Positions 34,046 through 49,691 of a stretch of 64,000 nucleotides of DNA are shown piece after piece. The number at the start of each line of letters is the position of its first letter. Within the stretch, counting starts at the first letter, position 1. The position numbers and the translations under genes were made by a program. The notes under the pieces are model-generated. The model was not told the DNA's origin. It searched no databases and saw nothing but the letters and a program-made list of their open reading frames with translations. The DNA comes from an uncultured Bacilli bacterium (GTDB lineage: Bacteria > Bacillota_I > Bacilli_A > RFN20 > CAG-826). The stretch lies in the NCBI GenBank assembly GCA_944376605.1, contig CALWDE010000012.1:4360-68359 (forward strand). Direction: 5' to 3'.

Positions 34046-34531
34046 ATGCCGATACGTCAAGATGCGAAGGAGAAAATCCTAGCTATCTGTGAATCCCATA
34101 AGGGAGAGCCATCTCCTTTAATGGTTGTGCTTGAAGAAATTCAAAGAGAGTTTGGTTATATTCCCTTTGATGTTCAAGAAATGGTTGCGAATAAACTTAA
34201 TGTAAGCGTGAGTGATGTTTATGGAGTGGTTACCTTTTATAACTTCTTCTCTTTAAATCCCAAAGGGAAGTATGTAATTGGTGTGTGTCTTGGCACCGCA
34301 TGTTACGTAAAAAATAGTCAGGCTGTTCTTGACAAGTTTGAAGAAGTGCTTGGCATTAAATCGGGTGAAACGAGCGAAGACGGTTTATTTACGATTGAGG
34401 CTCTTCGCTGCATCGGTGCTTGCGCTTTGGCACCTGCTGTTTCCATCAACGGAAAAGTTTATCCCATGGTTGCTCCTTCTAAGGTGCCATCCATTATTGA
34501 TGAATACCGTAAACTTGAGGAGGTAGCCTAA
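34046..34531 (+). CDS. hydC: [FeFe]-hydrogenase NuoE-like [2Fe-2S] subunit (HydC/HndA-type)
   Basis: Thioredoxin-like [2Fe-2S] cysteines (CLGTAC ... CIGACALAP). First gene of 3-gene operon. Confidence 0.8.
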   Translation: MPIRQDAKEKILAICESHKGEPSPLMVVLEEIQREFGYIPFDVQEMVANKLNVSVSDVYGVVTFYNFFSLNPKGKYVIGVCLGTACYVKNSQAVLDKFEEVLGIKSGETSEDGLFTIEALRCIGACALAPAVSINGKVYPMVAPSKVPSIIDEYRKLEEVA

Positions 34532-36408
34532 TGATTTCTGAGATTCGTAACGTAAAAGAATTAGACGAGGCCATTGATACTTGTACAAAAGAGTTTGAAG
34601 ACAAGATTAGTGGAGCGCACGGAAAAAGAGCGGTTCTTGTTTGTGGTGGAACAGGCTGCTTATCCAACGATTCTGATGCCATTTTGCAGGAATTTAAGCG
34701 CTTAGTAGAGGAAAAAGGTTTAGCAAATTCTATTACCGTTAATCATGTTGGTTGCTTTGGCTTTTGCTCCCAAGGTCCTTTTGTCAAAATTTATCCAGAA
34801 GATACCTTATACTGCAAAGTAAAAGTAAAAGATGTTATCGATATTGTGGAAGAAGATCTCGTTGGTGGAAATATCGTTGAACGCCTTCTTTATGTTGATC
34901 CTGTAACACATGAACGCGTGCAAAGACAAGACGATATTAACTTCTATAAGAGACAAAAGAGAATTTCTCTGCACGGCTGTTCGCTTGTTAATCCTGACTT
35001 TTTAGAGGAAGCACTTGGTTATGATGGCTTTAAAGCGTTAAAGAAAGTTCTTCTTACCATGAAGCCACAAGAAGTAATTGATGAAGTGCTCGCTTCTGGG
35101 CTTAGGGGTAGAGGAGGAGCTGGCTTCCCTACTGGCAGAAAGTGGCAATTTGCCGCGAATCAGCAAAGCGATACGAAATATATTGTTTGTAATGGTGATG
35201 AAGGCGATCCAGGCGCGTTTATGGACCGTTCTATTTTGGAAGGAAATCCCTTTGAAGTTATTGAAGGGATGATGATTGCTGGTTATGCCTTTGGCGCGCA
35301 TGAAGGCTATTTCTATGTAAGAGCGGAGTATCCTGTCGCAGTAGAACGTTTAAAAACTGCTATCAAGGATATGGAGAAGGTTGGCTTATTAGGTGACCAT
35401 ATTTTGGGAACTGATTTCTCTTTCCGCGCTTATATTCGCGAAGGCGCTGGCGCTTTCGTGTGCGGAGAAGAAACAGCCTTATTAAACAGTATTGAAGGGA
35501 AGCGCGGAATGCCAAGACCTCGTCCTCCTTTCCCTGCTATCAAAGGGCTTTGGGGAAAGCCAACCTGCGTGAATAACGTGGAGACTTTAGCCCAAGTTCC
35601 ATACATTATTCGAGTTGGGGCGAAAGAGTACGCCAAAGTGGGCACAGAAGGCAGCAAAGGCACAAAGGTGTTTGCTTTAGGCGGAAAGGTGAATAACGTC
35701 GGTTTAGTAGAAGTACCAATGGGTACCACTTTAAGAGAGTTAATCTTCGACATTGGGGGAGGTATTCCGGGCGGAAAGAAATTTAAAGCGATTCAAACGG
35801 GCGGACCTTCTGGAGGCTGCTTAACGGAAGAAGATTTAGATACTCCTATCGATTATGACACTCTCGTTGCCAAAGGCTCCATGATGGGTTCTGGTGGCGC
35901 GATTGTTATGGACGAAGATAACTGTATGGTGGACGTGGCGCGCTTCTATATGGACTTTATTTGTTCGGAGAGCTGCGGAAAATGTACGCCTTGCCGCATT
36001 GGCACAAAGCGTTTATACGAAATGCTTAGCAAAATTGTGGAAGGGAAGGGAACAAAAGAGACTTTAAAAGAAATGAAGAGTCTTGCCGCAGTGATTCATC
36101 AAGGTTCTTTATGTGCTTTAGGACAAACAGCAGCAAATCCTATTCTTTCCACGATGGAAAAATTCCCCGAAGAATATTTAGCGCACGTAGAAAGAAAAGA
36201 ATGTCCTGCTCACGTTTGTAAAAGACTTATTCGGATTGTTATTAATCCTGAATTATGTAAGAAGTGCTCTTTATGTGCGAGAAATTGTCCTGTTTCTGCT
36301 ATCACTGGTGTACCAGGAAAAGAGCCTTATCATATTGATCAAAATAAGTGTATTAAATGCGGCGCCTGTCTTGCCTCTTGCCGCTTTAAAGCGATTCATA
36401 AGGAGTAA
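34531..36408 (+). CDS. hydB: [FeFe]-hydrogenase NuoF-like NADH/FMN subunit (HydB/HndC-type) with N-terminal [2Fe-2S] and C-terminal 2x[4Fe-4S] ferredoxin domains
   Basis: GRGGAGFPTG FMN/NAD site. SESCGKCTPCR [4Fe-4S]. Terminal CKKCSLCARNCP / CIKCGACLASC. Confidence 0.85.
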   Translation: MISEIRNVKELDEAIDTCTKEFEDKISGAHGKRAVLVCGGTGCLSNDSDAILQEFKRLVEEKGLANSITVNHVGCFGFCSQGPFVKIYPEDTLYCKVKVKDVIDIVEEDLVGGNIVERLLYVDPVTHERVQRQDDINFYKRQKRISLHGCSLVNPDFLEEALGYDGFKALKKVLLTMKPQEVIDEVLASGLRGRGGAGFPTGRKWQFAANQQSDTKYIVCNGDEGDPGAFMDRSILEGNPFEVIEGMMIAGYAFGAHEGYFYVRAEYPVAVERLKTAIKDMEKVGLLGDHILGTDFSFRAYIREGAGAFVCGEETALLNSIEGKRGMPRPRPPFPAIKGLWGKPTCVNNVETLAQVPYIIRVGAKEYAKVGTEGSKGTKVFALGGKVNNVGLVEVPMGTTLRELIFDIGGGIPGGKKFKAIQTGGPSGGCLTEEDLDTPIDYDTLVAKGSMMGSGGAIVMDEDNCMVDVARFYMDFICSESCGKCTPCRIGTKRLYEMLSKIVEGKGTKETLKEMKSLAAVIHQGSLCALGQTAANPILSTMEKFPEEYLAHVERKECPAHVCKRLIRIVINPELCKKCSLCARNCPVSAITGVPGKEPYHIDQNKCIKCGACLASCRFKAIHKE

Positions 36409-36413
36409 GCAAT

Positions 36414-38207
36414 ATGGCGTTAATAGAAATTAAAATTGAAGGTAGAAATTACCAAGTTGATGACTCTTTAACAGTGTTAGAGGCTGCTAGAAGCTGCGGT
36501 TACCGTATTCCTACTTTATGTTATTGGAACCATGGCCATAACTCTTTAGCCTCTTGCAGAGTTTGCCTTGTTGAAATTAAAAATCCCCGCGGATCGCGCT
36601 TATTTGCCTCTTGTGTGTATCCGGTAAAAGAGGTTCCTGCTAGCAAAGGATTTGAGATTTTAATCTCTTCTCCTATGGCGGTTGAAGCAAGAAAGACTGC
36701 GGTAGAACTTCTTTTATCGAACCATTCCAAAGACTGTCAAACATGCGCGAAAAACGGGAAGTGCGAATTACTTGATGTTGCTAACTTAACGGGCGCAGAA
36801 ACGGGGAAGTTTATAGGGGAAAAGACTCCTACTACCTATGATGAACTTGCTCCCGGACTTATTCGCGATACGAGTAAATGCATTTTATGTGGCCGCTGCA
36901 TTGAACGCTGCAAAGAGGCGACAGGGATTGGTATTTTAGGATTTGAAAATCGCGGATTTAAAACCATTGTCGCGCCAATTGCCAATCGTTCTTTCAGCAA
37001 AGTGCCATGTCTCCAGTGCGGGCAATGCATCAACGTTTGTCCTACAGGCGCTTTATCAGAGAAGCGAGAAATTGACCGTGTTGATGAAGCCTTCAAGGAA
37101 GGCAAATATGTAGTTTGCCAAGTTGCTCCTGCAGTTCGCGCGGCAATTAGTGAAGAATTTGGCCATAAAATTGGTGAAGAAAATGGCGAAGGCAAGATGG
37201 TTGCAGCCTTACACCGTTTAGGCTTTAAGAAAGTGTTTGATGTGAACTTTGGCGCGGATGTGACCATTATGGAAGAAAGTCACGAATTACTAGAAAGAAT
37301 CAGTAAGCATACTGGCCCTTTACCACAAATTACATCTTGCTCTCCAGGCTGGGTGAATTATTTAGAGTATTTTTATCCCGAACTAATCCCACATCTATCT
37401 ACCTGCAAATCTCCTCATGAGATGCAAGGCGCTTTAACGAAGTCTTATTTTGCTGAAAAAGAGGGCTTAGATCCGAAAGATATTTATGTTGTTTCGATTA
37501 TGCCTTGCACAGCGAAGAAGTTTGAAAAAGAAAGAAAAGAGAACGCGGCGCTTGGCGTGCCTGACGTTGACGCGGTATTAACAACAAGAGAGCTTGCTTT
37601 ACTCATTAAGCGTTCTGGTATCTTATATGATGAGCTAAAAGAAGAAACTTTTGATCCTTTAATGGGTGAAAGTTCTGGTGCTGGCGCGATATTTGGTGTA
37701 ACTGGCGGAGTAATGGAAGCTGCTTTACGTACTGCTTATCACACTTTAACAGGAAAAGAGTATGCAAAAGTTGATTTTACGGAAGTACGCGGCTTTGAAG
37801 GAATTAAAGAAGCGGAAATCGATATAGAAGGAAGTAAAGTCAAAGTAGCGGTTGCTTCCGGTGCGAAAAACGCCAAACCTCTTTTAGAAGAGATTAAAGC
37901 AGGGAAGAGCCCATACGCCTTTATTGAGATTATGGGGTGCCCTGGAGGATGCTTAAATGGTGGCGGTCAGCCCTTTGTCAAACCATCCTTATTACCAAAG
38001 GAAGATAAAGACATCCTTGATACTTATTTAAGTAAGAGAGCGAATATTCTTTATTCCATTGATGAGAGAAAGAGCGTTCGTCAAAGCCATAACAATCCTG
38101 AAATTAAAGCGTTATATGAATCTTATTTAGAAAAGCCAGGAAGTGAGAAGGCGGAGCATCTCTTACATACCTCTTATATCGCTACGCGTGAGCGTTATCC
38201 TCATTAA
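36414..38207 (+). CDS. hydA: [FeFe]-hydrogenase catalytic subunit HydA (M3-type: 2Fe-2S + His-ligated 4Fe-4S + 2x4Fe-4S + H-cluster)
   Basis: H-cluster motifs TSCSPGW (L1), MPCTAKKFE (L2), EIMGCPGGCLNGGGQP (L3). CILCGRCIERC and CLQCGQCINVCP ferredoxin motifs. Confidence 0.9.
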   Translation: MALIEIKIEGRNYQVDDSLTVLEAARSCGYRIPTLCYWNHGHNSLASCRVCLVEIKNPRGSRLFASCVYPVKEVPASKGFEILISSPMAVEARKTAVELLLSNHSKDCQTCAKNGKCELLDVANLTGAETGKFIGEKTPTTYDELAPGLIRDTSKCILCGRCIERCKEATGIGILGFENRGFKTIVAPIANRSFSKVPCLQCGQCINVCPTGALSEKREIDRVDEAFKEGKYVVCQVAPAVRAAISEEFGHKIGEENGEGKMVAALHRLGFKKVFDVNFGADVTIMEESHELLERISKHTGPLPQITSCSPGWVNYLEYFYPELIPHLSTCKSPHEMQGALTKSYFAEKEGLDPKDIYVVSIMPCTAKKFEKERKENAALGVPDVDAVLTTRELALLIKRSGILYDELKEETFDPLMGESSGAGAIFGVTGGVMEAALRTAYHTLTGKEYAKVDFTEVRGFEGIKEAEIDIEGSKVKVAVASGAKNAKPLLEEIKAGKSPYAFIEIMGCPGGCLNGGGQPFVKPSLLPKEDKDILDTYLSKRANILYSIDERKSVRQSHNNPEIKALYESYLEKPGSEKAEHLLHTSYIATRERYPH

Positions 38208-42681: not shown

Positions 42682-43266
42682 ATGCAGTTTTCTTTTTCTG
42701 ATGAAGATCTCATTCTTTTTATGCGTCTTGGGAAAGAGGAGTACAGAGAGCTACTTCTATTACGTTACTGGCAAAAGATGTCTTGCTTATGTCATTTAGC
42801 TTGTCCCTTTCTTTCTTATTCTTTTGACTTAGCAGAGTTCTCCTCTTCTTACTTAAAAGTATTTTATATGGCGAGTAATAATTACCGCCTCGAAGGAACT
42901 CTATTTGAAACTTATTTTGTGAATGCTTTAAGAAATGAGATCTATATCTTTTTGCATAAAGAAAAAGTGAGAAGAGAAGTCGCTTCTCTTCGCCTAGAAG
43001 ACACTTGTTCTTCAAGCACTTCTCTCACTTTTGGGGATGTGGTAGCTTCTCCTGCTTTAGGGCCAAAAGAAGAAATCATTCATCTAGATTCTGCAAGGAT
43101 TTTAGCAGAAAGAAGTCTTCTTCTTTCGCGCGAGGAAAAACGTCTTATTTCCTTAAGAAGAGAAGGAAAACCATATGAGGAATGCGCGAAAATTTTAGGC
43201 CTAACAAGGAAACAAGTGCGTGTGCGCATGAACCGTATCCGAAAATGTTTACTTATCGTAGAATGA
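42682..43266 (+). CDS. alternative sigma-70-family factor (ECF/SigH-like, regions 2 and 4 only)
   Basis: Region 2-like DEDLILFMRLGKEEYRELL...TYFVNALRNEI. Region 4 HTH LLSREEKRLISLRREGKPYEECAKILGLTRKQVRVRMNRIRKCL. RBS AAGGAGG. Confidence 0.65.
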   Translation: MQFSFSDEDLILFMRLGKEEYRELLLLRYWQKMSCLCHLACPFLSYSFDLAEFSSSYLKVFYMASNNYRLEGTLFETYFVNALRNEIYIFLHKEKVRREVASLRLEDTCSSSTSLTFGDVVASPALGPKEEIIHLDSARILAERSLLLSREEKRLISLRREGKPYEECAKILGLTRKQVRVRMNRIRKCLLIVE

Positions 43267-43283: not shown

Positions 43284-43380
43284 TTTTCTCTTTACTTTTT
43301 GTTATTTCTCGAAGAGAAAACCTCTTGAATTCCACCTCCCCCTATTCTTAATATGAACCAATCTTTTGGGAGGCTTTTTA

Positions 43381-44172
43381 ATGGCTAAATCGACAAAAAT
43401 GAATAGTCGAAAGAAGTGGACGCTTGGCGGCATTGGATTGTTCCTTGGTGTTGCCCTTGTTACCACTGCTTCCGCCACCTACATCATTGGAATTAATCAA
43501 ACAAATCAAAATCCAAACGTTGGCGTGGATGTTGATACTGTTACCAATAATTCTGTTACCTTCTCTATGAAAGTACATGAAGGCAGCCGCTTACGTGTTG
43601 GTGAAACAGAAAACACTAGCGGAGATGTCGTTGTTGTAGAAGATGCTAGTGATACCGCCATGCAAGTTACTTTTGACGTAACAATCAAGTATGGCGAGCA
43701 ATATCTTGCTGATGGCGAAACAATGACCATCAATTACTCTTTTGATTATTGGAGTGAGGATACTAGCTCTGCGAATAAACCTTTACTTGTAGCGGATGGC
43801 CTTTTAAGCATTAGAGGCGAAATTGATAAGACTGTTTGCTCTACTGAAGAGGAAGGCGTCGCAGATCGTTGGACTTATGTGGATGCACCAAATGCTACTG
43901 CAGTACCTACTGCGACTGGTAGCGGCTGGACTGTTAGCACAGATGGTAATGTAACTACTGCTACTGCAACACTTACTCTCACCTTTAAGTGGGGTTCTTT
44001 CTTTGATAATCAAAGCCCTGCCACTTTCTATAACGCGAAATATGATCCTTCTACCATTACAGCAGAAGATGCTGGCAAAATCGAAGCAGAGTTAGATGCA
44101 ATGCACGCAGCTCTTGATAAGAAGAATATTACGCTTACTGCTGAGATTACGAAGGCAGGCGCAGGAGCCTAA
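43381..44172 (+). CDS. TasA/camelysin-like secreted protein 1 with SipW-cognate-type signal peptide
   Basis: ATG 43381 after GGGAGG. N-terminus MAKSTKMNSRKKWTLGGIGLFLGVALVTTASATYIIGINQT resembles TasA signal (…GGGTWAAFND). 264 aa, size of TasA. Confidence 0.55.
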   Translation: MAKSTKMNSRKKWTLGGIGLFLGVALVTTASATYIIGINQTNQNPNVGVDVDTVTNNSVTFSMKVHEGSRLRVGETENTSGDVVVVEDASDTAMQVTFDVTIKYGEQYLADGETMTINYSFDYWSEDTSSANKPLLVADGLLSIRGEIDKTVCSTEEEGVADRWTYVDAPNATAVPTATGSGWTVSTDGNVTTATATLTLTFKWGSFFDNQSPATFYNAKYDPSTITAEDAGKIEAELDAMHAALDKKNITLTAEITKAGAGA

Positions 44173-44250
44173 TTTCCCTTTCTTACTCTTCTAGCCCATG
44201 GTGACATGGGCTCTCTTTCGTTAAGGTAATTTTATAAAGAAGGAATATTT

Positions 44251-44973
44251 ATGAAAAAAACGAGAAAAACAAATAACAAAGCAATGACAGTTGGTATTGC
44301 TTTAGCAGCAGTTGCCATCACTGGTGTGGCTTTCTCTACATGGATAATTGTGAATGATCAAAGCTCTACTGTTACTGGCAATATCACTCTCAATGTTGCT
44401 GATGTAGAGGATCAAAGCATTATTATCAAGAACGCGCAAGTAGATGATGGTGCTATCAGATTTGACTGTAAGAAGGATGATTCAAGCGGCCCTATCCGTT
44501 TCTCGGATGATGACGGAAGTACTGGAGAAGATCTTAACTTCTCTATGCACTTTGATATTGAAAATGTTTGGGATGGATCTGCTTTTGAAAGTTACTATAG
44601 CGGTTTCAAATTAACCTGGACTATCACGGATACTTCTAGCGCTTTTAGCACTGCTATTTCTAGTGGTTATATTGTTGCGCCTTGGGCAAGTGAGAGTGAG
44701 CTTACTTTTGGAAAGCCAACGAATCTAACAGAAGACACAAACACCGTTAAGGTTCAAAGCTTTACTGCGACGCATACTGCTGGTAGTGATAATGATGTTC
44801 ATGTTGCAATTTCTGCTTCTTTCGCTTGGGGAACTTATTTTGGAACTAGTAACCCTGGTGAATATGCAGGAAGCGACGCTTCTACTATTAGCAGTTATTT
44901 AAGCGGTTTAAATAGTTTGAAGAGCCTTGATAGTGTTACTATCGCTTTCACGGTGGCGCCAGTTCGTGCATAG
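44251..44973 (+). CDS. TasA/camelysin-like secreted protein 2 (paralog)
   Basis: Signal MKKTRKTNNKAMTVGIALAAVAITGVAFSTWIIVNDQSS. FSTWIIVND ~ GGTWAAFND of B. subtilis TasA. Confidence 0.6.
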   Translation: MKKTRKTNNKAMTVGIALAAVAITGVAFSTWIIVNDQSSTVTGNITLNVADVEDQSIIIKNAQVDDGAIRFDCKKDDSSGPIRFSDDDGSTGEDLNFSMHFDIENVWDGSAFESYYSGFKLTWTITDTSSAFSTAISSGYIVAPWASESELTFGKPTNLTEDTNTVKVQSFTATHTAGSDNDVHVAISASFAWGTYFGTSNPGEYAGSDASTISSYLSGLNSLKSLDSVTIAFTVAPVRA

Positions 44974-45009
44974 ATAATGATTTATAACTAACTTTTTGTT
45001 CCTATAGCT

Positions 45010-45741
45010 ATGGGTAGAAAATCTCTTGAAACAACCATTATCTTTTCTCTTCTTGGTGTGGCTGTTTTAAGCATTGGATTTTCTACCTTTGCTTATGGAG
45101 ATGCGAATGCAGAAGATGTTTCAGGAAATATCAACTTTGGCAACATTGTTGTAGAAGAAGATAGTAGCCGTTATCTTCTTCCTTTAAAGGATGAGGAAAA
45201 CTTAGTAACAGCAGGATTCTCTCTGGATTTGTTACAAAGCACTTCTATCTCTTCTTACTTTAGTGTTGCGATTCCTGTAACTTTTTCTGCTTCTTATTGG
45301 CGTCTTACGAATCAGCCAAATTTTACGATTGATATAAGCGGCTTTAGCGATGCCGCTCAGCAAAATCTTGCTTTGCTTGTTGGGGTTACTAACGAGAGTG
45401 ATATTTACACAAGTTGTTCCATCAATCTTTCGACCTTCGCTTTTGATCACGAGAGTGTATTTCAAGGTAGCTTAATTGCTGCAGAAGGATTTAACAGCGT
45501 CGAGGAAGGGAAAAATACGTATCATTTTCCTTCTACTATGCAGTTTACTTTAGAGGATAGTACGCACTTTTCTGCCTTAGAAGGAGCGGAAAACATTTAC
45601 CTTAATCTTCATTTTTCCCGGAATGGTTATAGTTCAGGACAGACACAGTCGTTACGGAACTTTGTCTCTTCCTTAATTAATACTGCCAATGGATTTATTT
45701 TAGAACTTAAGATTCATGATGTAACAGGAGAGAGTGCATGA
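45010..45741 (+). CDS. TasA/camelysin-like secreted protein 3 (paralog)
   Basis: Signal ...LGVAVLSIGFSTFAYGDANAED (GFSTFAYGD ~ SipW-cognate consensus GGTFAYFSD). Confidence 0.55.
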   Translation: MGRKSLETTIIFSLLGVAVLSIGFSTFAYGDANAEDVSGNINFGNIVVEEDSSRYLLPLKDEENLVTAGFSLDLLQSTSISSYFSVAIPVTFSASYWRLTNQPNFTIDISGFSDAAQQNLALLVGVTNESDIYTSCSINLSTFAFDHESVFQGSLIAAEGFNSVEEGKNTYHFPSTMQFTLEDSTHFSALEGAENIYLNLHFSRNGYSSGQTQSLRNFVSSLINTANGFILELKIHDVTGESA

Positions 45742-46778
45742 GTGGATTAGAAATTCTCTCTCTTATTGTTACCATTATTTGTCTTGTCTCTTTCTCTTTC
45801 GTCTTCACCATCTTATTCCGTTCTTACTATAAGAATGCGGAAGAGGGGGTAAATAACGGCAAGGAAGACTTACTTCTTTTGCAAGAACTTGTTGAAGAAG
45901 AAGAAAAGAAGAGTTCGAAATGGGCGCAAGTGAAAAATGTAGGAGGAAAGATTATCTCTTACTCCTTGCTTGCCCTAGTAGTGGTCTTCTTTGGTTTCTC
46001 TCTTGCAGCAAGAATTAGTAATACTCCACTTTTATTTGGTGAAACGGGGACTCTTGTCATTTCTTCTCCCTCCATGAGTGAGAAAAACACCGTCAATACG
46101 TATTTATGGACGTATGACTTAAATGATCAGCTTGATACTTATGATCTCATTGGAGTAGAGAGAATCCACTCTCCAGAAGAAATAGAACTTTATGACATTA
46201 TTGCTTTCCGGGCGAATGATGGCAGAACCATTGTTCACCGCGTGATTGATATTAGTAAAATAGATGGGGAATATTTCTTCCGCACGAAAGGAGATGCAAA
46301 CCGTTTAGAAGATGCTGGAGATTTATATGGTGACTATCTTGCCTATCAAGACATCTTAGCCAAATATAACGAGTTCCGTGTTCCTGTAATTGGGGTATTT
46401 GTCATCTTCTTACAATCAGGCGCAGGAATTGCCACAATCTTCTCGCTTATCTACTGCTATCTCATGTATGGATATTTCCGTAAGAGACTAGATAAAGCGA
46501 TTGAAGAGAGAAGCGAGTATTTAGTAAGCACTCTCTCTTTTGTTGCAAAAGATAAAGAGACTCCTGCTTATATTGAAGAAAAAGAAGAAATTCTTTATAA
46601 AGAAGAAAAATATCTCTTCGTTGAAGGAAAGTTCATTGAGAAAAGTGCAGCTTCCGAAGAAGAAATTACCCGCTTTACCGCTTCTAGTGAAGAAGAGGAG
46701 AAAGAAGAAACAGAAAACTTCATCCAAAAACTTCTTCATAAATTTAGAAAGGAGGATGACCAAGATGAAAAAGAATAA
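45738..46778 (+). CDS. sipW: ER/archaeal-type signal peptidase I (SipW-like, S26B) with N-terminal TM anchor, an insertion and ~130-aa E/K-rich C-terminal tail
   Basis: Boxes VISSPSMSE (Ser nucleophile), IVHRVIDI (His), FFRTKGDANRLEDAGD (KGDxN..D). ATGA overlap with preceding gene. Confidence 0.65.
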   Translation: MSGLEILSLIVTIICLVSFSFVFTILFRSYYKNAEEGVNNGKEDLLLLQELVEEEEKKSSKWAQVKNVGGKIISYSLLALVVVFFGFSLAARISNTPLLFGETGTLVISSPSMSEKNTVNTYLWTYDLNDQLDTYDLIGVERIHSPEEIELYDIIAFRANDGRTIVHRVIDISKIDGEYFFRTKGDANRLEDAGDLYGDYLAYQDILAKYNEFRVPVIGVFVIFLQSGAGIATIFSLIYCYLMYGYFRKRLDKAIEERSEYLVSTLSFVAKDKETPAYIEEKEEILYKEEKYLFVEGKFIEKSAASEEEITRFTASSEEEEKEETENFIQKLLHKFRKEDDQDEKE

Positions 46779-49647
46779 CGCTAAATTCCGTTGGACTTTT
46801 ACAGGGATTTTGTTTGCAATTGGTTGTATCTCCTTAGGTTCCGCAGCCTATTTAGTAGAGAATGAAACGAATTTAGGACTCTCTGACGGCTTAGTGCAGG
46901 TCCGCTTTGTAAATGAGAACAGTGCTACTTCGAATGAAATGCTTGTTCCTCCTGGCACCATTGTGAAAGTGAACACTTCTACCGTTCCTGGTTATTCTTA
47001 TGTTTCTTCTAATGAAGGCACAGTGGTAGAAAATAAAGTCATTTTTGGGGACTTTGTTGTACCAGAAGATGTTGATGAAATTGAATGCACCGCATTCGCA
47101 CCAATTGTCGATAGTGATAGTTATGTTTCTTTATCTGAGTATGTTCAGGGAGGTACTCCAGCCCATTTAGCGGTGAATTTCACAGGAGGCACAACAGAAT
47201 TAGAATCCACTTTATTTTCGCCATCTACCGAAGAAAGAAGGGGATTAAACGAGAAGTACGTATTCCTTGATGTAGAAGACAATTTTGTCTTATCAAAACC
47301 TTTGTCTTTTGTGATTGGCGGTGAGCCTTCTACTGATACAAATCAGAGAAATTTAAATCAAGGTGCTGCTCCTGCTACTACAAACGCCTTCCAACATGTT
47401 ACGGAAGCAAATCATTTGATTACAGTTGTTTTGCAGTCTGATTTAACGATTGGTAGTGGTGGCTCTCTTGCTTTAGAGGCTACTACTGGAAGAAAATCTA
47501 CTGGTTTTTCAGGGAACGTAATTAGTGGAAATTACACTGCTTTAGATTTAAATGGACATACAATAACTTTGCAAAACGGCGCTTCTTTACGTCAATTTGG
47601 TCTATTAACAGATTCTTCTTATGATAAATCAGGGCAAATTATTGTTGATAATGGTGCGCATTTATCAGGCGGCTTAGTGGTGGAAGACTTTAATGGTGGC
47701 ACTGTCACGGTTGGCAGCTATTTAGTGAACTCTGCCCCGTTCTTCCTCTTCTCTATGCCCTATTTAGAGGCAACAGTGGATGTGCTCTATGGCGGCAACT
47801 TCGGGGGAGATGTTTCGCTATATGCGCAAGGCACATATGGAAGCACGGAAATTCCGCTTTTTGGTTCTAGTGATTTACATATGGTAGAGATAGAAAATGC
47901 TTCTTCTCATGTGGTTCGTTCGGTAAAAGGACGACATAGAGTCGATAGTACTCAAACAAATTACTCTGTTAATTTCTGGAAGCCGTATTTAGTGGATTAC
48001 AGAGAAGAATTTGCCTTAATTGGCCCTGGCGATTCTACAAGTGAATCCTTCCGTGTGAATCCTATGGTTCTACCACTTTTAATGCGCGCAAATATACCTC
48101 TTTTAGGAGATGTTGATATCAATGCAGAAGTGAGTTTTGCTGAAATGGATTTCCCTATCGCGCCTTGGATGCATATTTCTTTAGAAGATGGTGCGGCCTT
48201 AAATTTTGGAAATAGTTTTGGCTTTTTACCTGGTTCATCGCTTAATGTGGACTCTACATCTAAAATTATTTTCTCTTCCAGAAACAATATTGAAGCAACA
48301 ATCACTGCATCCATTTGGACAAAGACAATGACTTTTAATAGTTTACCCTATCTAAAAGCCTATGACTTTATGCCACCTCAGCCCTATTATTCAATGGCTT
48401 ACTTTTCATCTTTTAATAGTAACTATGCAAATTGGGACTCTGTTGTTGAACCTGCCTTCTTTAATTTTGAAGGTTCAATGGAGCTTGATTCAAGCAGTTT
48501 GCCCTCCAATATGGGTATTGGTGGGTATACCCATATGGGCCAAGCAAGTAGAGAATTTATTGCTTCCCTATCGCCAAATACGTTTAATACAACGCCTATT
48601 GGAATTATGCGCGTAGGCGCTATTGGTGTAACAGAATTAGGAACTTGGATGCTCGACGTCTTTAGTAATACTCCTCCGCATGTGGCGGTGAATGCAATGT
48701 ATAACATAGCGCCACTATCAGTAGATGGTTATATCGTTAAGGACTTAGCTTCTCTTGGAGTAAATGCTAACACTGATTACAATCCAGATGAAAAATGGAC
48801 CTATGATTGTGTGGACTCCTTAGCAAAACGTTATAGCGGAGAAACTCTTACAGGTATTCAATTTTTCCTCGTTGATTCCTCTTATGATCAAAATTTCTCA
48901 AGTCAATGGACCAATAATCCTTCAGGAAGTTGGGTGGATGCAAGCCGTTTATCTGATGGTAATTGGGGTGAATTAAATTTGCCCAACTATCAACGTTCTT
49001 ATAGTTCTGAACTTGGAGTTAATATGATTCCGTTTGTTCATTATGGCGATACTTATTATGCCAGATTTGGTGGAACTTTTGTTCCGATGCTAACTAAATT
49101 GTCTACGGTTTTTCAAACGAGTCGTACTCAGACAAGAACTCATACGCAAACGCGCTCATGGGCTCTTGGACCATGGAAAAATGATGAATATTCAAAGTGG
49201 GTGGCATCTTCAATCGTGTCTAGCAATGGCGTTACAAGCATTTCTAGTTTAAATACAAACACTAGTTCATTAACTATCGAGCCTGTTTTTACAGGTTTAA
49301 ACTGCTATGAAAATCTTAATGTAAAACGCTTTACCCGTATGAGTGACGATAGCGTTGATAGTGATAATGCAAATCCATTTATGAATGCGTCAAACAGCTC
49401 CATGTATTCTCTATCAAATCAGTTGGGTTCGCAGGGAGTTTCTCTTAATATCCCAGACTATACAGGAATAGAAAATTCTTCTATTTCATCAGGGGACTGG
49501 TCCACTGATGGTAATACGAGAACTCGAACACAAACGCGTGCTACAACCCCAGCACAAAGTTCTGGACATGAAAATGGTTACAGTTACTTCCGTTTTGATG
49601 CTACTAGAGCAAGTTGGAGAGTTTTATGGGTAGATGGTACCCGTTAA
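46765..49647 (+). CDS. large (960 aa) secreted surface protein with SipW-cognate-type signal and Thr/Arg/Gln dipeptide repeats
   Basis: ATG 46765, 9 nt after AAAGGAGG. Signal MKKNNAKFRWTFTGILFAIGCISLGSAAYLVENE. TRTQTRTHTQTR and TRTRTQTR repeats near C-terminus. Start overlaps sipW by 14 nt. Confidence 0.6.
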   Translation: MKKNNAKFRWTFTGILFAIGCISLGSAAYLVENETNLGLSDGLVQVRFVNENSATSNEMLVPPGTIVKVNTSTVPGYSYVSSNEGTVVENKVIFGDFVVPEDVDEIECTAFAPIVDSDSYVSLSEYVQGGTPAHLAVNFTGGTTELESTLFSPSTEERRGLNEKYVFLDVEDNFVLSKPLSFVIGGEPSTDTNQRNLNQGAAPATTNAFQHVTEANHLITVVLQSDLTIGSGGSLALEATTGRKSTGFSGNVISGNYTALDLNGHTITLQNGASLRQFGLLTDSSYDKSGQIIVDNGAHLSGGLVVEDFNGGTVTVGSYLVNSAPFFLFSMPYLEATVDVLYGGNFGGDVSLYAQGTYGSTEIPLFGSSDLHMVEIENASSHVVRSVKGRHRVDSTQTNYSVNFWKPYLVDYREEFALIGPGDSTSESFRVNPMVLPLLMRANIPLLGDVDINAEVSFAEMDFPIAPWMHISLEDGAALNFGNSFGFLPGSSLNVDSTSKIIFSSRNNIEATITASIWTKTMTFNSLPYLKAYDFMPPQPYYSMAYFSSFNSNYANWDSVVEPAFFNFEGSMELDSSSLPSNMGIGGYTHMGQASREFIASLSPNTFNTTPIGIMRVGAIGVTELGTWMLDVFSNTPPHVAVNAMYNIAPLSVDGYIVKDLASLGVNANTDYNPDEKWTYDCVDSLAKRYSGETLTGIQFFLVDSSYDQNFSSQWTNNPSGSWVDASRLSDGNWGELNLPNYQRSYSSELGVNMIPFVHYGDTYYARFGGTFVPMLTKLSTVFQTSRTQTRTHTQTRSWALGPWKNDEYSKWVASSIVSSNGVTSISSLNTNTSSLTIEPVFTGLNCYENLNVKRFTRMSDDSVDSDNANPFMNASNSSMYSLSNQLGSQGVSLNIPDYTGIENSSISSGDWSTDGNTRTRTQTRATTPAQSSGHENGYSYFRFDATRASWRVLWVDGTR

Positions 49648-49691
49648 ACATATATTTGTAATTAAGAAGGAGAGATAAGGAGGATTCTTCG

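Follow-up and report, generated by a model that had tools for sequence, protein, structure and literature searches.

Three tandem paralogs of an unannotated, hypervariable protein family beside an ER-type signal peptidase gene in an uncultured Bacilli bacterium

What are the products of three small genes that stand in a row directly upstream of a signal peptidase gene in an uncultured Bacilli bacterium, and are they the matrix-fibre subunits that such an arrangement calls to mind? The genes, here named P1, P2 and P3, occupy positions 43381-45741 of a 64,000-nucleotide stretch of contig CALWDE010000012.1 (assembly GCA_944376605.1), the whole of which we refer to as the window. A preliminary description of this DNA had called their products TasA/camelysin-like paralogs with SipW-cognate signals: of that proposal, a SipW-style operon with tandem paralogous substrates stands, and the TasA/camelysin family label does not. 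We find that the locus is a variation on the theme of secreted subunits with a dedicated peptidase, built on an unannotated, hypervariable family inside a conserved multi-gene cluster. The best overall explanation, to which we give about an even chance, is that P1–P3 are surface-exposed, probably polymerising subunits with a dedicated peptidase that are analogous to TasA. With no greater confidence than that, the family as a whole can be described as ~23–25 kDa secreted beta-sandwich surface proteins of uncultured gut-type Bacillota.

All three open reading frames (ORFs) were found in tandem on the + strand, just where they had first been placed. P1 (43381..44172) encodes a 263-aa precursor with a predicted cut at ASA|TYIIG after residue 32, which would leave 231 aa of mature protein; P2 (44251..44973), a diverged paralog, encodes 240 aa with a predicted cut at AFS|TWIIV after residue 29 (211 aa mature); and P3 (45010..45741), a highly diverged paralog, encodes 243 aa with a predicted cut at GFS|TFAYG after residue 25 (218 aa mature). 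We placed the start of P1 at the ATG at 43381 rather than at the TTG at 43366 because a GGGAGG Shine–Dalgarno sequence lies 8 nt 5' of the former. The signal-peptide coding part of P1 (43381..43476, + strand, 32 codons) corresponds to the most conserved segment of the family. The motif strings SATYIIGINQ, FSTWIIVND and FSTFAYGDAN are all present, each behind a hydrophobic core that is itself preceded by a basic n-region, only weakly basic in P3. Predicted mature lengths are near the 234 aa of mature TasA, and pairwise identity among the three is as slight as had been reported, with BLASTP E values of 2.4 and 0.081, and of 0.001 for the N-termini of P2 and P3 only.

By sequence comparison, P1, P2 and P3 are true paralogs: P1 is typical of the family, P2 has diverged from it, and P3, highly diverged, counts as a borderline member. 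Their paralogy, suspected from the window itself, was confirmed by an independent family hidden Markov model (HMM) built from 139 members with the window proteins and their near relatives left out, which matched all three and scored P1 at 228.7, P2 at 125.1 and P3 at 21.4 bits. The alignment of P3 to this model is full-length (residues 8-236; E=2.6e-6 among 261 window ORFs), and when all 261 six-frame ORFs of the window were compared with it, the only matches were P1–P3 and the N-terminus of the ORF at 46756-49647. P1 and P2 each combine a full-length match with the cleavage motif and with a C-terminal FxWG[ST][FY]F motif, which reads FKWGSFF in P1 and FAWGTYF in P2.

Word-indexed searches returned only 2–4 close relatives of P1–P3, and an exhaustive profile search retrieved 1,437 cluster representatives (50% identity) at E<=1e-3, of which 441 reached E<=1e-10; the best 150 of the 1,437 matches were nearly all 230–290 aa long and aligned over essentially their full length. 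Few of the members are named, and these are cases of 'hypothetical protein' from 'Candidatus Onthovivens sp.' and 'bacterium' metagenome-assembled genomes; a scan of a genome collection added one 52%-identical locus from an 'uncultured Firmicutes bacterium'. We detected no meaningful Pfam or NCBIfam family match in 145 aligned members, nothing meaningful for P1–P3 in Pfam, NCBIfam or PHROGs, and no match at E<=10 when P1–P3 were searched directly against PDB chains. The best PDB match of the family profile was the TM2 helix of KcsA, a chance match that reflects transmembrane (TM)-like character. A family of 1,437 clusters at 50% identity without a Pfam or NCBIfam model is an annotation blind spot in uncultured gut Bacilli.

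Conservation in this family peaks in the signal region, which is unusual for ordinary Sec signals. Over the 145 members its consensus is S-K-R-K-W-[IV]-x-G-G-...-V-A-L-L-T-T-G-F-A-T-W-[VI]-[IV]-G, and the information content of the n-, h- and c-regions is 2.5, 2.6 and 3.4 bits per column, respectively, against 1.46 in the mature core, which makes this an unusually conserved Sec-type signal. Conservation extends, at 2.11 bits per column, over the ~26 residues that follow in the mature chain. High conservation of the signal peptide is a known hallmark of substrates of dedicated SipW-type peptidases, and accounts for the existence of signal models like TIGR04088. Around the predicted cut, the -3 column (27) holds G or A and the -1 column (29) holds A, S or G in 145 of 145 sequences, and the +2 column (31) holds W in 129, Y in 12 and F in 4. 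Read from sequence, [GA]-F-[ASG]|[TS]-W is a textbook -3/-1 signal peptidase I site, and so regular a motif goes well beyond chance. As a separate observation, the family n-region SKRKW[IV]xGG resembles the KxYKxGKxW class of Gram-positive signals, whose model gave weak matches in 16 of the 145 members (best E=0.11) that are not significant.

The gene that follows P3 (45738..46778, + strand) encodes a 346-aa signal peptidase I of the endoplasmic reticulum (ER)/archaeal type (SipW/Sec11-like), and its start overlaps the P3 stop codon (ATGA), in keeping with the adjacent peptidase of the preliminary description; the two belong to the same operon. The product scores 61.6 bits against TIGR02228 (cut-off 51.85) and 65 bits against the SipW equivalog NF046067, under the cut-off of 190; its best PDB matches are SEC11A (E=6.4e-5) and SEC11C. 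Residues S112-M113, H167-R168, G185-D186-x-N188 and D192 are invariant in five loci whose peptidases are 40–67% identical to that of the window, and the boxes align with IVHRV and TKGDNN of SEC11A. Because the S-M, H-R and GDxN..D boxes are invariant in these loci, we read the product as an intact Ser-His type peptidase in which His replaces the bacterial Lys. Its N-terminus is extended by a further TM segment and an acidic linker, and its C-terminus by a cytoplasmic tail of ~100 aa that is highly acidic and rich in Glu and Lys. The NF046067 model is 189 positions long and B. subtilis SipW has ~190 aa, so the window peptidase is nearly double that size. We also read further loci from metagenome assemblies (L001, L003–L011 and L012), leaving out the genes of L002 and obtaining no context from L006 (1.2 kb), and the peptidase gene adjoins the subunit genes in all loci that reach that far (L001, L003–L005 and L007–L012).

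We consider it likely that P1–P3 are secreted and that the adjacent peptidase processes them, because the columns flanking the predicted cut are small without exception, the genes are adjacent and their translation is coupled. A quite unlikely alternative is that the signal is retained as an anchor, in which case P1–P3 would be type II membrane proteins forming a variable surface coat, their helices would contact membrane proteins of the cluster, and the peptidase would serve other substrates. In its favour, conservation of the n- and h-regions at 2.5–2.6 bits is as strong as in functional TM helices, a Trp stands at the helix end, the chance match to KcsA is TM-like, and AlphaFold2 predicts a single helix for residues 10-29 of P2. 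Related orders include peptidoglycan-deficient lineages (PMC10868615), whose surface proteins would have to be held in the membrane. Against retention, the -3 and -1 positions bear the signature of signal peptidase I and not that of a TM end, the hydrophobic core of ~13 residues followed by polar T-T is typical of Gram-positive signal peptides, and a catalytically intact, dedicated peptidase is translationally coupled in every locus for which the downstream gene was fetched.

Are these proteins then relatives of TasA? As a control we used a TasA sequence that agrees with the fibre chain 8AUR_A at every one of residues 28-261; mature TasA begins AFND in that chain, which places its cut at TWA|AFND. 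The control scored 129.1 bits against PF12389, 513.8 bits against NF046066 and 38 bits against TIGR04088 (cut-off 19), and also matched TIGR04090 (BsaA) and TIGR04089 ('alternate-type' SipW substrate). None of these five models matched P1–P3 (E<=1) or the 145 relatives (E<=10 in Pfam, E<=0.1 in NCBIfam), and TIGR04088, the SipW-signal model, is absent from the 25 families listed for those relatives. No TasA chain appeared at E<=10 when the family profile was searched against PDB sequences, and hhalign paired the profile with TasA over 25 signal-peptide columns only, at a probability of 1.8%. Membership of the TasA/camelysin family, as first proposed, therefore finds no support in P1–P3 or in their 145 relatives. 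The parallel drawn with TasA GGTWAAFND likewise fails in register: the T-W of TasA lies at -3/-2 and that of this family at +1/+2, the predicted cleavage site being three residues upstream of the TasA register. Our best reading of these comparisons is that P1–P3 are analogous to TasA and not detectably homologous to it.

On a rival view, P1–P3 are genuine but very remote TasA/camelysin (Peptidase_M73) homologues with a SipW-cognate signal, and would form donor-strand fibres of the TasA type. The operon logic is the same, with paralogous ~25 kDa secreted proteins beside a SipW-type peptidase; T-W and T-F-A-Y near the cleavage site look alike; and hhalign pairs the two signal peptides with TW in register. 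We judge this very improbable given that the control matches all five models and the family none, that the mature part stays unaligned in hhalign and that the cleavage register is off by three residues. The predicted structures may add a further point against it: towards the C-terminus they have a long helix, then a final strand and the FxWGSFF motif, an arrangement that TasA is not known to have.

Those structures are AlphaFold2 monomer models of full-length P2 and mature P1, built with a deep family alignment. Full-length P2 (mean predicted local distance difference test, pLDDT, 88.5; predicted template modelling score, pTM, 0.75) is modelled as a helix over residues 10-29 that stops exactly at the predicted cut, coil over 30-57 and a beta-sandwich thereafter. 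In mature P1 (pLDDT 90.6, pTM 0.84) regular secondary structure begins no earlier than residue 27, and the opening two blocks of 10 residues have pLDDT of 52 and 69, that is, low confidence over the first ~20 residues. The predicted core is a generic Ig-like sandwich of a kind common in adhesins, and as modelled the subunit fold is without a close PDB counterpart; comparison of the models with PDB folds gave no clear match to TasA. A reading as type IV pilins or archaellins, prompted by the conserved N-terminal helix and by weak matches to FlaG and Iho670, was ruled out by the small-x-small site after the helix and by the lack of pilin machinery among the cluster proteins scanned, which yielded no match to a prepilin peptidase or a PilB/TadA-type ATPase. 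The Foldseek match to the Iho670 pilin was insignificant (TM-scores 0.15 and 0.14).

The strongest new evidence on the mature domains comes from comparisons between strains. L007 and L009 are 91–95% identical in DNA except for one interval: 95% identity continues to nucleotide 10113, covering codons 1-37 of the P1-like gene, which end with TWVVG, similarity is then undetectable over the rest of P1 and all of P2 (L007:10114-11584), and it resumes exactly at the start codon of the peptidase. At the protein level the two strains share 97% identity in the AAA+ protein, 97% in its partner, 99% in the ABC transporter ATPase and 99% in the permease, compared with 47% in the P1-like and 37% in the P2-like protein. 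The peptidase, at 80%, falls below most of its neighbours, which indicates that a part of it varies together with the subunit cassette. Between the window and L012, which belong to the same species, background nucleotide identity is 96.6–98.2%, and values fall to 88.4% in P1, 93.9% in P2, 95.8% in P3 and 73.7% in the gene for a large secreted protein, whose C-terminal ~1.4 kb is unalignable; P1 is the most variable small gene in this comparison. Ratios of nonsynonymous to synonymous substitution (dN/dS, Nei–Gojobori) for the same pair are 0.38 for P1, 0.33 for P2, 0.29 for the N-terminal part of the large protein and 0.16 for P3, against 0.00–0.09 for the sigma factor, peptidase, AAA+, partner and ABC genes, such that dN/dS of P1 and P2 is raised 4–5-fold, the background for P1 being ~0.08.

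Flagellins and pilins show this same pattern of conserved ends, an exposed middle that can be replaced and exchange by cassettes, and the likeness argues for mature domains that are abundant, lie exposed at the surface and face diversifying pressure. We hold it very probable that the mature proteins are surface-exposed and diversifying. Hypervariability of the mature domains also accounts for the more than 1,400 clusters at 50% identity within a narrow taxonomic range. Cassette-like exchange marks the P1–P3 family as a main exposed antigen or phage-contact surface of these organisms, which bears on strain typing, host immunity and phage ecology. The ideas of major and minor subunits and of antigenic variation, raised in the preliminary description, both fit these data, since P1 is the family-typical member and P1 and P2 are hypervariable between strains.

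The subunit and peptidase genes belong to a larger cluster, which in the window spans 43381-57564. The loci form two lineages: group A, which includes the window, has the cluster after cysS, mgtC, rlmB and a sigma factor gene of the extracytoplasmic function (ECF)-like type, and group B has it after an alpha-amylase gene. Judged wherever the fetched sequence extends far enough, the order P1-like, P2-like, peptidase, AAA+, partner, ABC ATPase, permease and beta-helix protein is collinear in both groups. P3 and a ~960–1000-aa protein are confined to the sub-lineage of the window, with P3 orthologs only in L001 and L012. Strict collinearity between lineages that share 26–56% protein identity across the cluster suggests that the AAA+/DUF2357, ABC and beta-helix genes belong to the same functional unit as the subunits.

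Among these genes, the ORF at 46756..49647 (+ strand) encodes the large secreted protein of ~960 aa, which bears a family-like signal and first strand, SLGSA|AYLVENE (SLGSS|SFYIE in its L001 ortholog). Its N-terminal 60 residues match the family HMM weakly, at 7–9 bits (E=0.0014–0.02), and it is absent from L003 and L007–L011, making it an optional member of the cluster; by analogy with known fibre systems, we propose it as an accessory, tip or anchor component. Downstream lies the gene for a membrane-tethered, McrB-like AAA+ protein of 600 aa (49692..51494, + strand), with N-terminal TM helices, a match to the PADLOC model PDC-M26A (E=4.8e-41) and a weak match to AAA_5; it holds the same position in L001, L003, L004 and L007–L012, and the window and L007 copies are 52% identical. 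Its partner, 423 aa (51498..52769, + strand), is a cytoplasmic zinc-ribbon protein with a C-terminal CxxC...CxxC and weak zinc-ribbon matches. Orthologs of the partner, the window copy included, are 423–478 aa long, and those of L010 and L007 score 24.2 and 22.5 bits against DUF2357, an McrC-like N-terminal domain (cut-off 23.3). The AAA+ fused to several TM segments, with its DUF2357/zinc-ribbon neighbour (49692-52769), resembles a membrane-tethered McrBC-like pair, which may be an assembly motor or a defence module.

These two genes bring in a different account of the locus, in which P1–P3 are processed but remain monomeric, serving as variable adhesins, decoys, phage-receptor or anti-receptor proteins or ligands handled by the ABC and AAA+ proteins, in an island given over mainly to defence or to variation of the envelope. 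In its favour, PDC-M26A, which the AAA+ protein matches, is a candidate defence protein, and the partner carries the McrC-like domain; phage-receptor and defence loci typically show cassettes replaced between strains, IS605/TnpB elements lie near the locus in L007–L009, and the generic Ig-like sandwich core is shared with many adhesins. We consider this account unlikely, since a variable middle between conserved termini is classically the mark of subunits that polymerise, flagellin and pilin among them, since two or three paralogs share an N-terminal strand that the large protein mimics, and since gene order that stays collinear across two lineages at low protein identity points to one functional unit and not to an island of unrelated genes.

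The remaining genes of the cluster encode an ABC transporter and a beta-helix protein. An ABC (ATP-binding cassette) transporter ATPase of 271 aa (52773..53588, + strand; PF00005 E=1.7e-22) is kept in L001, L003, L004 and L007–L012, and is followed by its partner, a polytopic membrane permease of 534 aa (53585..55189, + strand). The window copy of the permease is without a Pfam match, and its orthologs in L007–L011 carry PF09847 (12TM_1), the window and L007 proteins being 33% identical over 527 aa. A 792-aa beta-helix protein (55186..57564, + strand) has an N-terminal hydrophobic segment, a right-handed beta-helix region with a Beta_helix match at E=3.3e-5 and 24.0 bits (cut-off 25.9) and a weak match to a tail-spike PHROG; its orthologs in L003 and L007–L011 are 805–837 aa long. 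This gene is the last of the cluster wherever it is reached, being cut at the locus end in L003 and L007–L011 and lying beyond the reach of L001 and L012.

Two genes flank this unit in the window. Upstream, 114 nt before P1, the ORF at 42682..43266 (+ strand) encodes an ECF-like sigma-70 family factor (TIGR02937 43.2 bits, cut-off 42.9; Sigma70_r4_2 E=1.1e-8), in which region 4 is clear and region 2 weak. Equivalents are present in L001, L003 and L012 and absent in L007–L011, where the alpha-amylase gene precedes the cluster; the factor may be a dedicated regulator of the locus. Downstream, a 361-aa lipoprotein (57561..58646, + strand) has the lipobox LTSC and a Flg_new match (E=1.6e-11; Listeria-Bacteroides repeat), and may or may not belong to the system. 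Shortly behind its lipidated Cys comes GSAGYLIQD, and it is one of only five window ORFs that match the motif scan. This string resembles GSAAYLVENE of the large protein, and may reflect a membrane anchor presenting a donor-like strand, or chance.

Several observations concern the wider surroundings. An IS605-family OrfB/TnpB gene (Cas12f-like TNB domain) lies a few kb 5' of the group B cluster at L007:4062-5964, L008:4975-6318 and L009:3896-5798, accompanied in L007 and L009 by a resolvase. The 64-kb window holds no Rfam match at the gathering threshold and no tRNA gene, and its genes from ~5.2 kb on are all on the + strand, with a steadily rising cumulative GC skew. ORFs at 34046-38207 form an electron-bifurcating [FeFe]-hydrogenase-type cluster, as read from the Pfam annotation of the syntenic L001 and L003 genes.

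Taken as TasA-analogous surface subunits, P1–P3 would act as follows. The precursors would be exported by Sec, and the Ser-His peptidase of the ER/archaeal type encoded in the operon would cut them at [GA]-x-[ASG]|[TS]-[WYF]-[VI]-[IVY]. The mature proteins would then be exposed at the surface and subject to diversifying selection, as the strain comparisons indicate. Their conserved, unpacked first ~20 residues (TW[VI][IV]G.NQ...) could serve as an intermolecular strand that joins subunits head to tail into a fibre or coat, a step we suggest because of the analogy with donor-strand exchange in TasA and AbpA. P1 would be the major subunit and P2 and P3 minor ones, with the ~960-aa protein as a TapA-like tip or anchor. 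Polymerisation through the N-terminal strand with these subunit roles, drawn by analogy from TasA, BsaA and AbpA, is a tentative proposal that we rate somewhat below an even chance. A conserved and, in the monomer models, unpacked mature N-terminus is compatible with donor-strand exchange but no proof of it.

A number of points tell against this explanation. The cleavage site is predicted by the -3/-1 rule, which a cut placed two residues earlier (T-T-G|F) would satisfy as well; the basic n-region, the hydrophobic stretch of ~19 residues and the interfacial Trp would suit an uncleaved signal anchor as well. Polymerisation is argued from analogy and from monomer models, in which a disordered N-terminus is not specific to donor strands. 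P3 is a borderline member of the family (21.4 bits) that has the cleavage motif and is without the C-terminal FxWG motif. Neither tapA-sipW-tasA nor sipW-bsaABC has a counterpart of the AAA+, DUF2357, ABC or beta-helix genes, so the machine may differ in its task.

A further such point concerns the 78-nt spacer between P1 and P2, where a terminator-like hairpin (44193..44212, + strand; 8-bp stem with 5 GC pairs, then CTCTTTCGTT) may conceivably act as an attenuator that favours P1 output over the downstream genes. It is not conserved, the corresponding spacers in L001 and L003 being 11 and 20 nt. With the spacers of relatives only 11–20 nt long, we downgraded the hairpin as support for P1 as the major subunit.

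A more ambitious version of the surface-subunit explanation holds that the cluster encodes a lineage-specific surface-filament or coat system of uncultured gut Bacillota, composed of subunits without a close PDB match, a hypervariable mature-domain cassette swapped between strains behind a constant signal peptide, a dedicated Sec11-like peptidase and an assembly or export apparatus of AAA+/DUF2357 and ABC proteins. We regard this as rather unlikely, but if true it would be a new pairing of a restriction-type motor with envelope biogenesis. Matrix fibres coupled to SipW (TasA, BsaA and, in archaea, AbpA and cannulae) increasingly look like a widespread way of making extracellular filaments that needs no chaperone, and to our knowledge all such cases trace to one family, PF12389. 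A second, unrelated subunit family with the same ER-type peptidase would show that this logic of export and processing evolved or was recruited more than once.

The closest known counterpart of the locus is tapA-sipW-tasA of B. subtilis. In both, a dedicated signal peptidase of the ER/archaeal type accompanies secreted, beta-rich subunits of ~25 kDa, and conservation covers both the signal peptide and the mature N-terminus, which in TasA is the donor strand (PDB 5OF1, 8AUR). Both also have an accessory protein with a subunit-mimicking N-terminus: there it is TapA, whose N-terminus mimics the TasA donor strand (PMC9674648). The differences lie in the parts. The mature portions of P1–P3 are without sequence or profile similarity to TasA, the cut is TWA|AF in TasA and GFA|TW in the P1–P3 family, and the window peptidase, which is 346 aa long and has an additional TM segment and an acidic tail, falls under the SipW equivalog cut-off. 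The window cluster further adds the McrB-like AAA+, the DUF2357 protein, the ABC exporter and the beta-helix protein, and its subunits are hypervariable between strains.

Other systems resemble the locus in part. The sipW-bsaA-bsaB-bsaC operon of C. perfringens comprises several paralogous subunits, SipW and a large secreted accessory protein, and has been proposed to assemble a heteropolymer through exchange of donor strands (PMC11580942). It thus shares with the window the combination of paralogous subunits, peptidase and large secreted accessory protein in one operon, but the BsaA model TIGR04090 is not among the families listed for the 145 members, the C-termini of P1–P3 are without LPxTG, and no sortase or vWA match was found in the cluster proteins scanned. 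Archaeal AbpA/AbpB (PDB 7UEG) and other donor-strand filaments that form without a chaperone likewise have a small beta-sandwich subunit cut by signal peptidase I and use an N-terminal strand for assembly, with a larger second protein as the suggested initiator or anchor. HHpred connects AbpA with PF12389 (97%), and AbpA is without a dedicated peptidase; the P1–P3 family has such a peptidase and no detectable link to PF12389. Flagellin and type IV pilin loci differ in that P1–P3 are without a class III signal or a prepilin-peptidase site and have a signal peptidase I site after the hydrophobic segment; what they share with the window family is a hypervariable exposed middle between conserved terminal segments, and allelic cassettes that are replaced between near-identical strains and bounded by a conserved 5' end.

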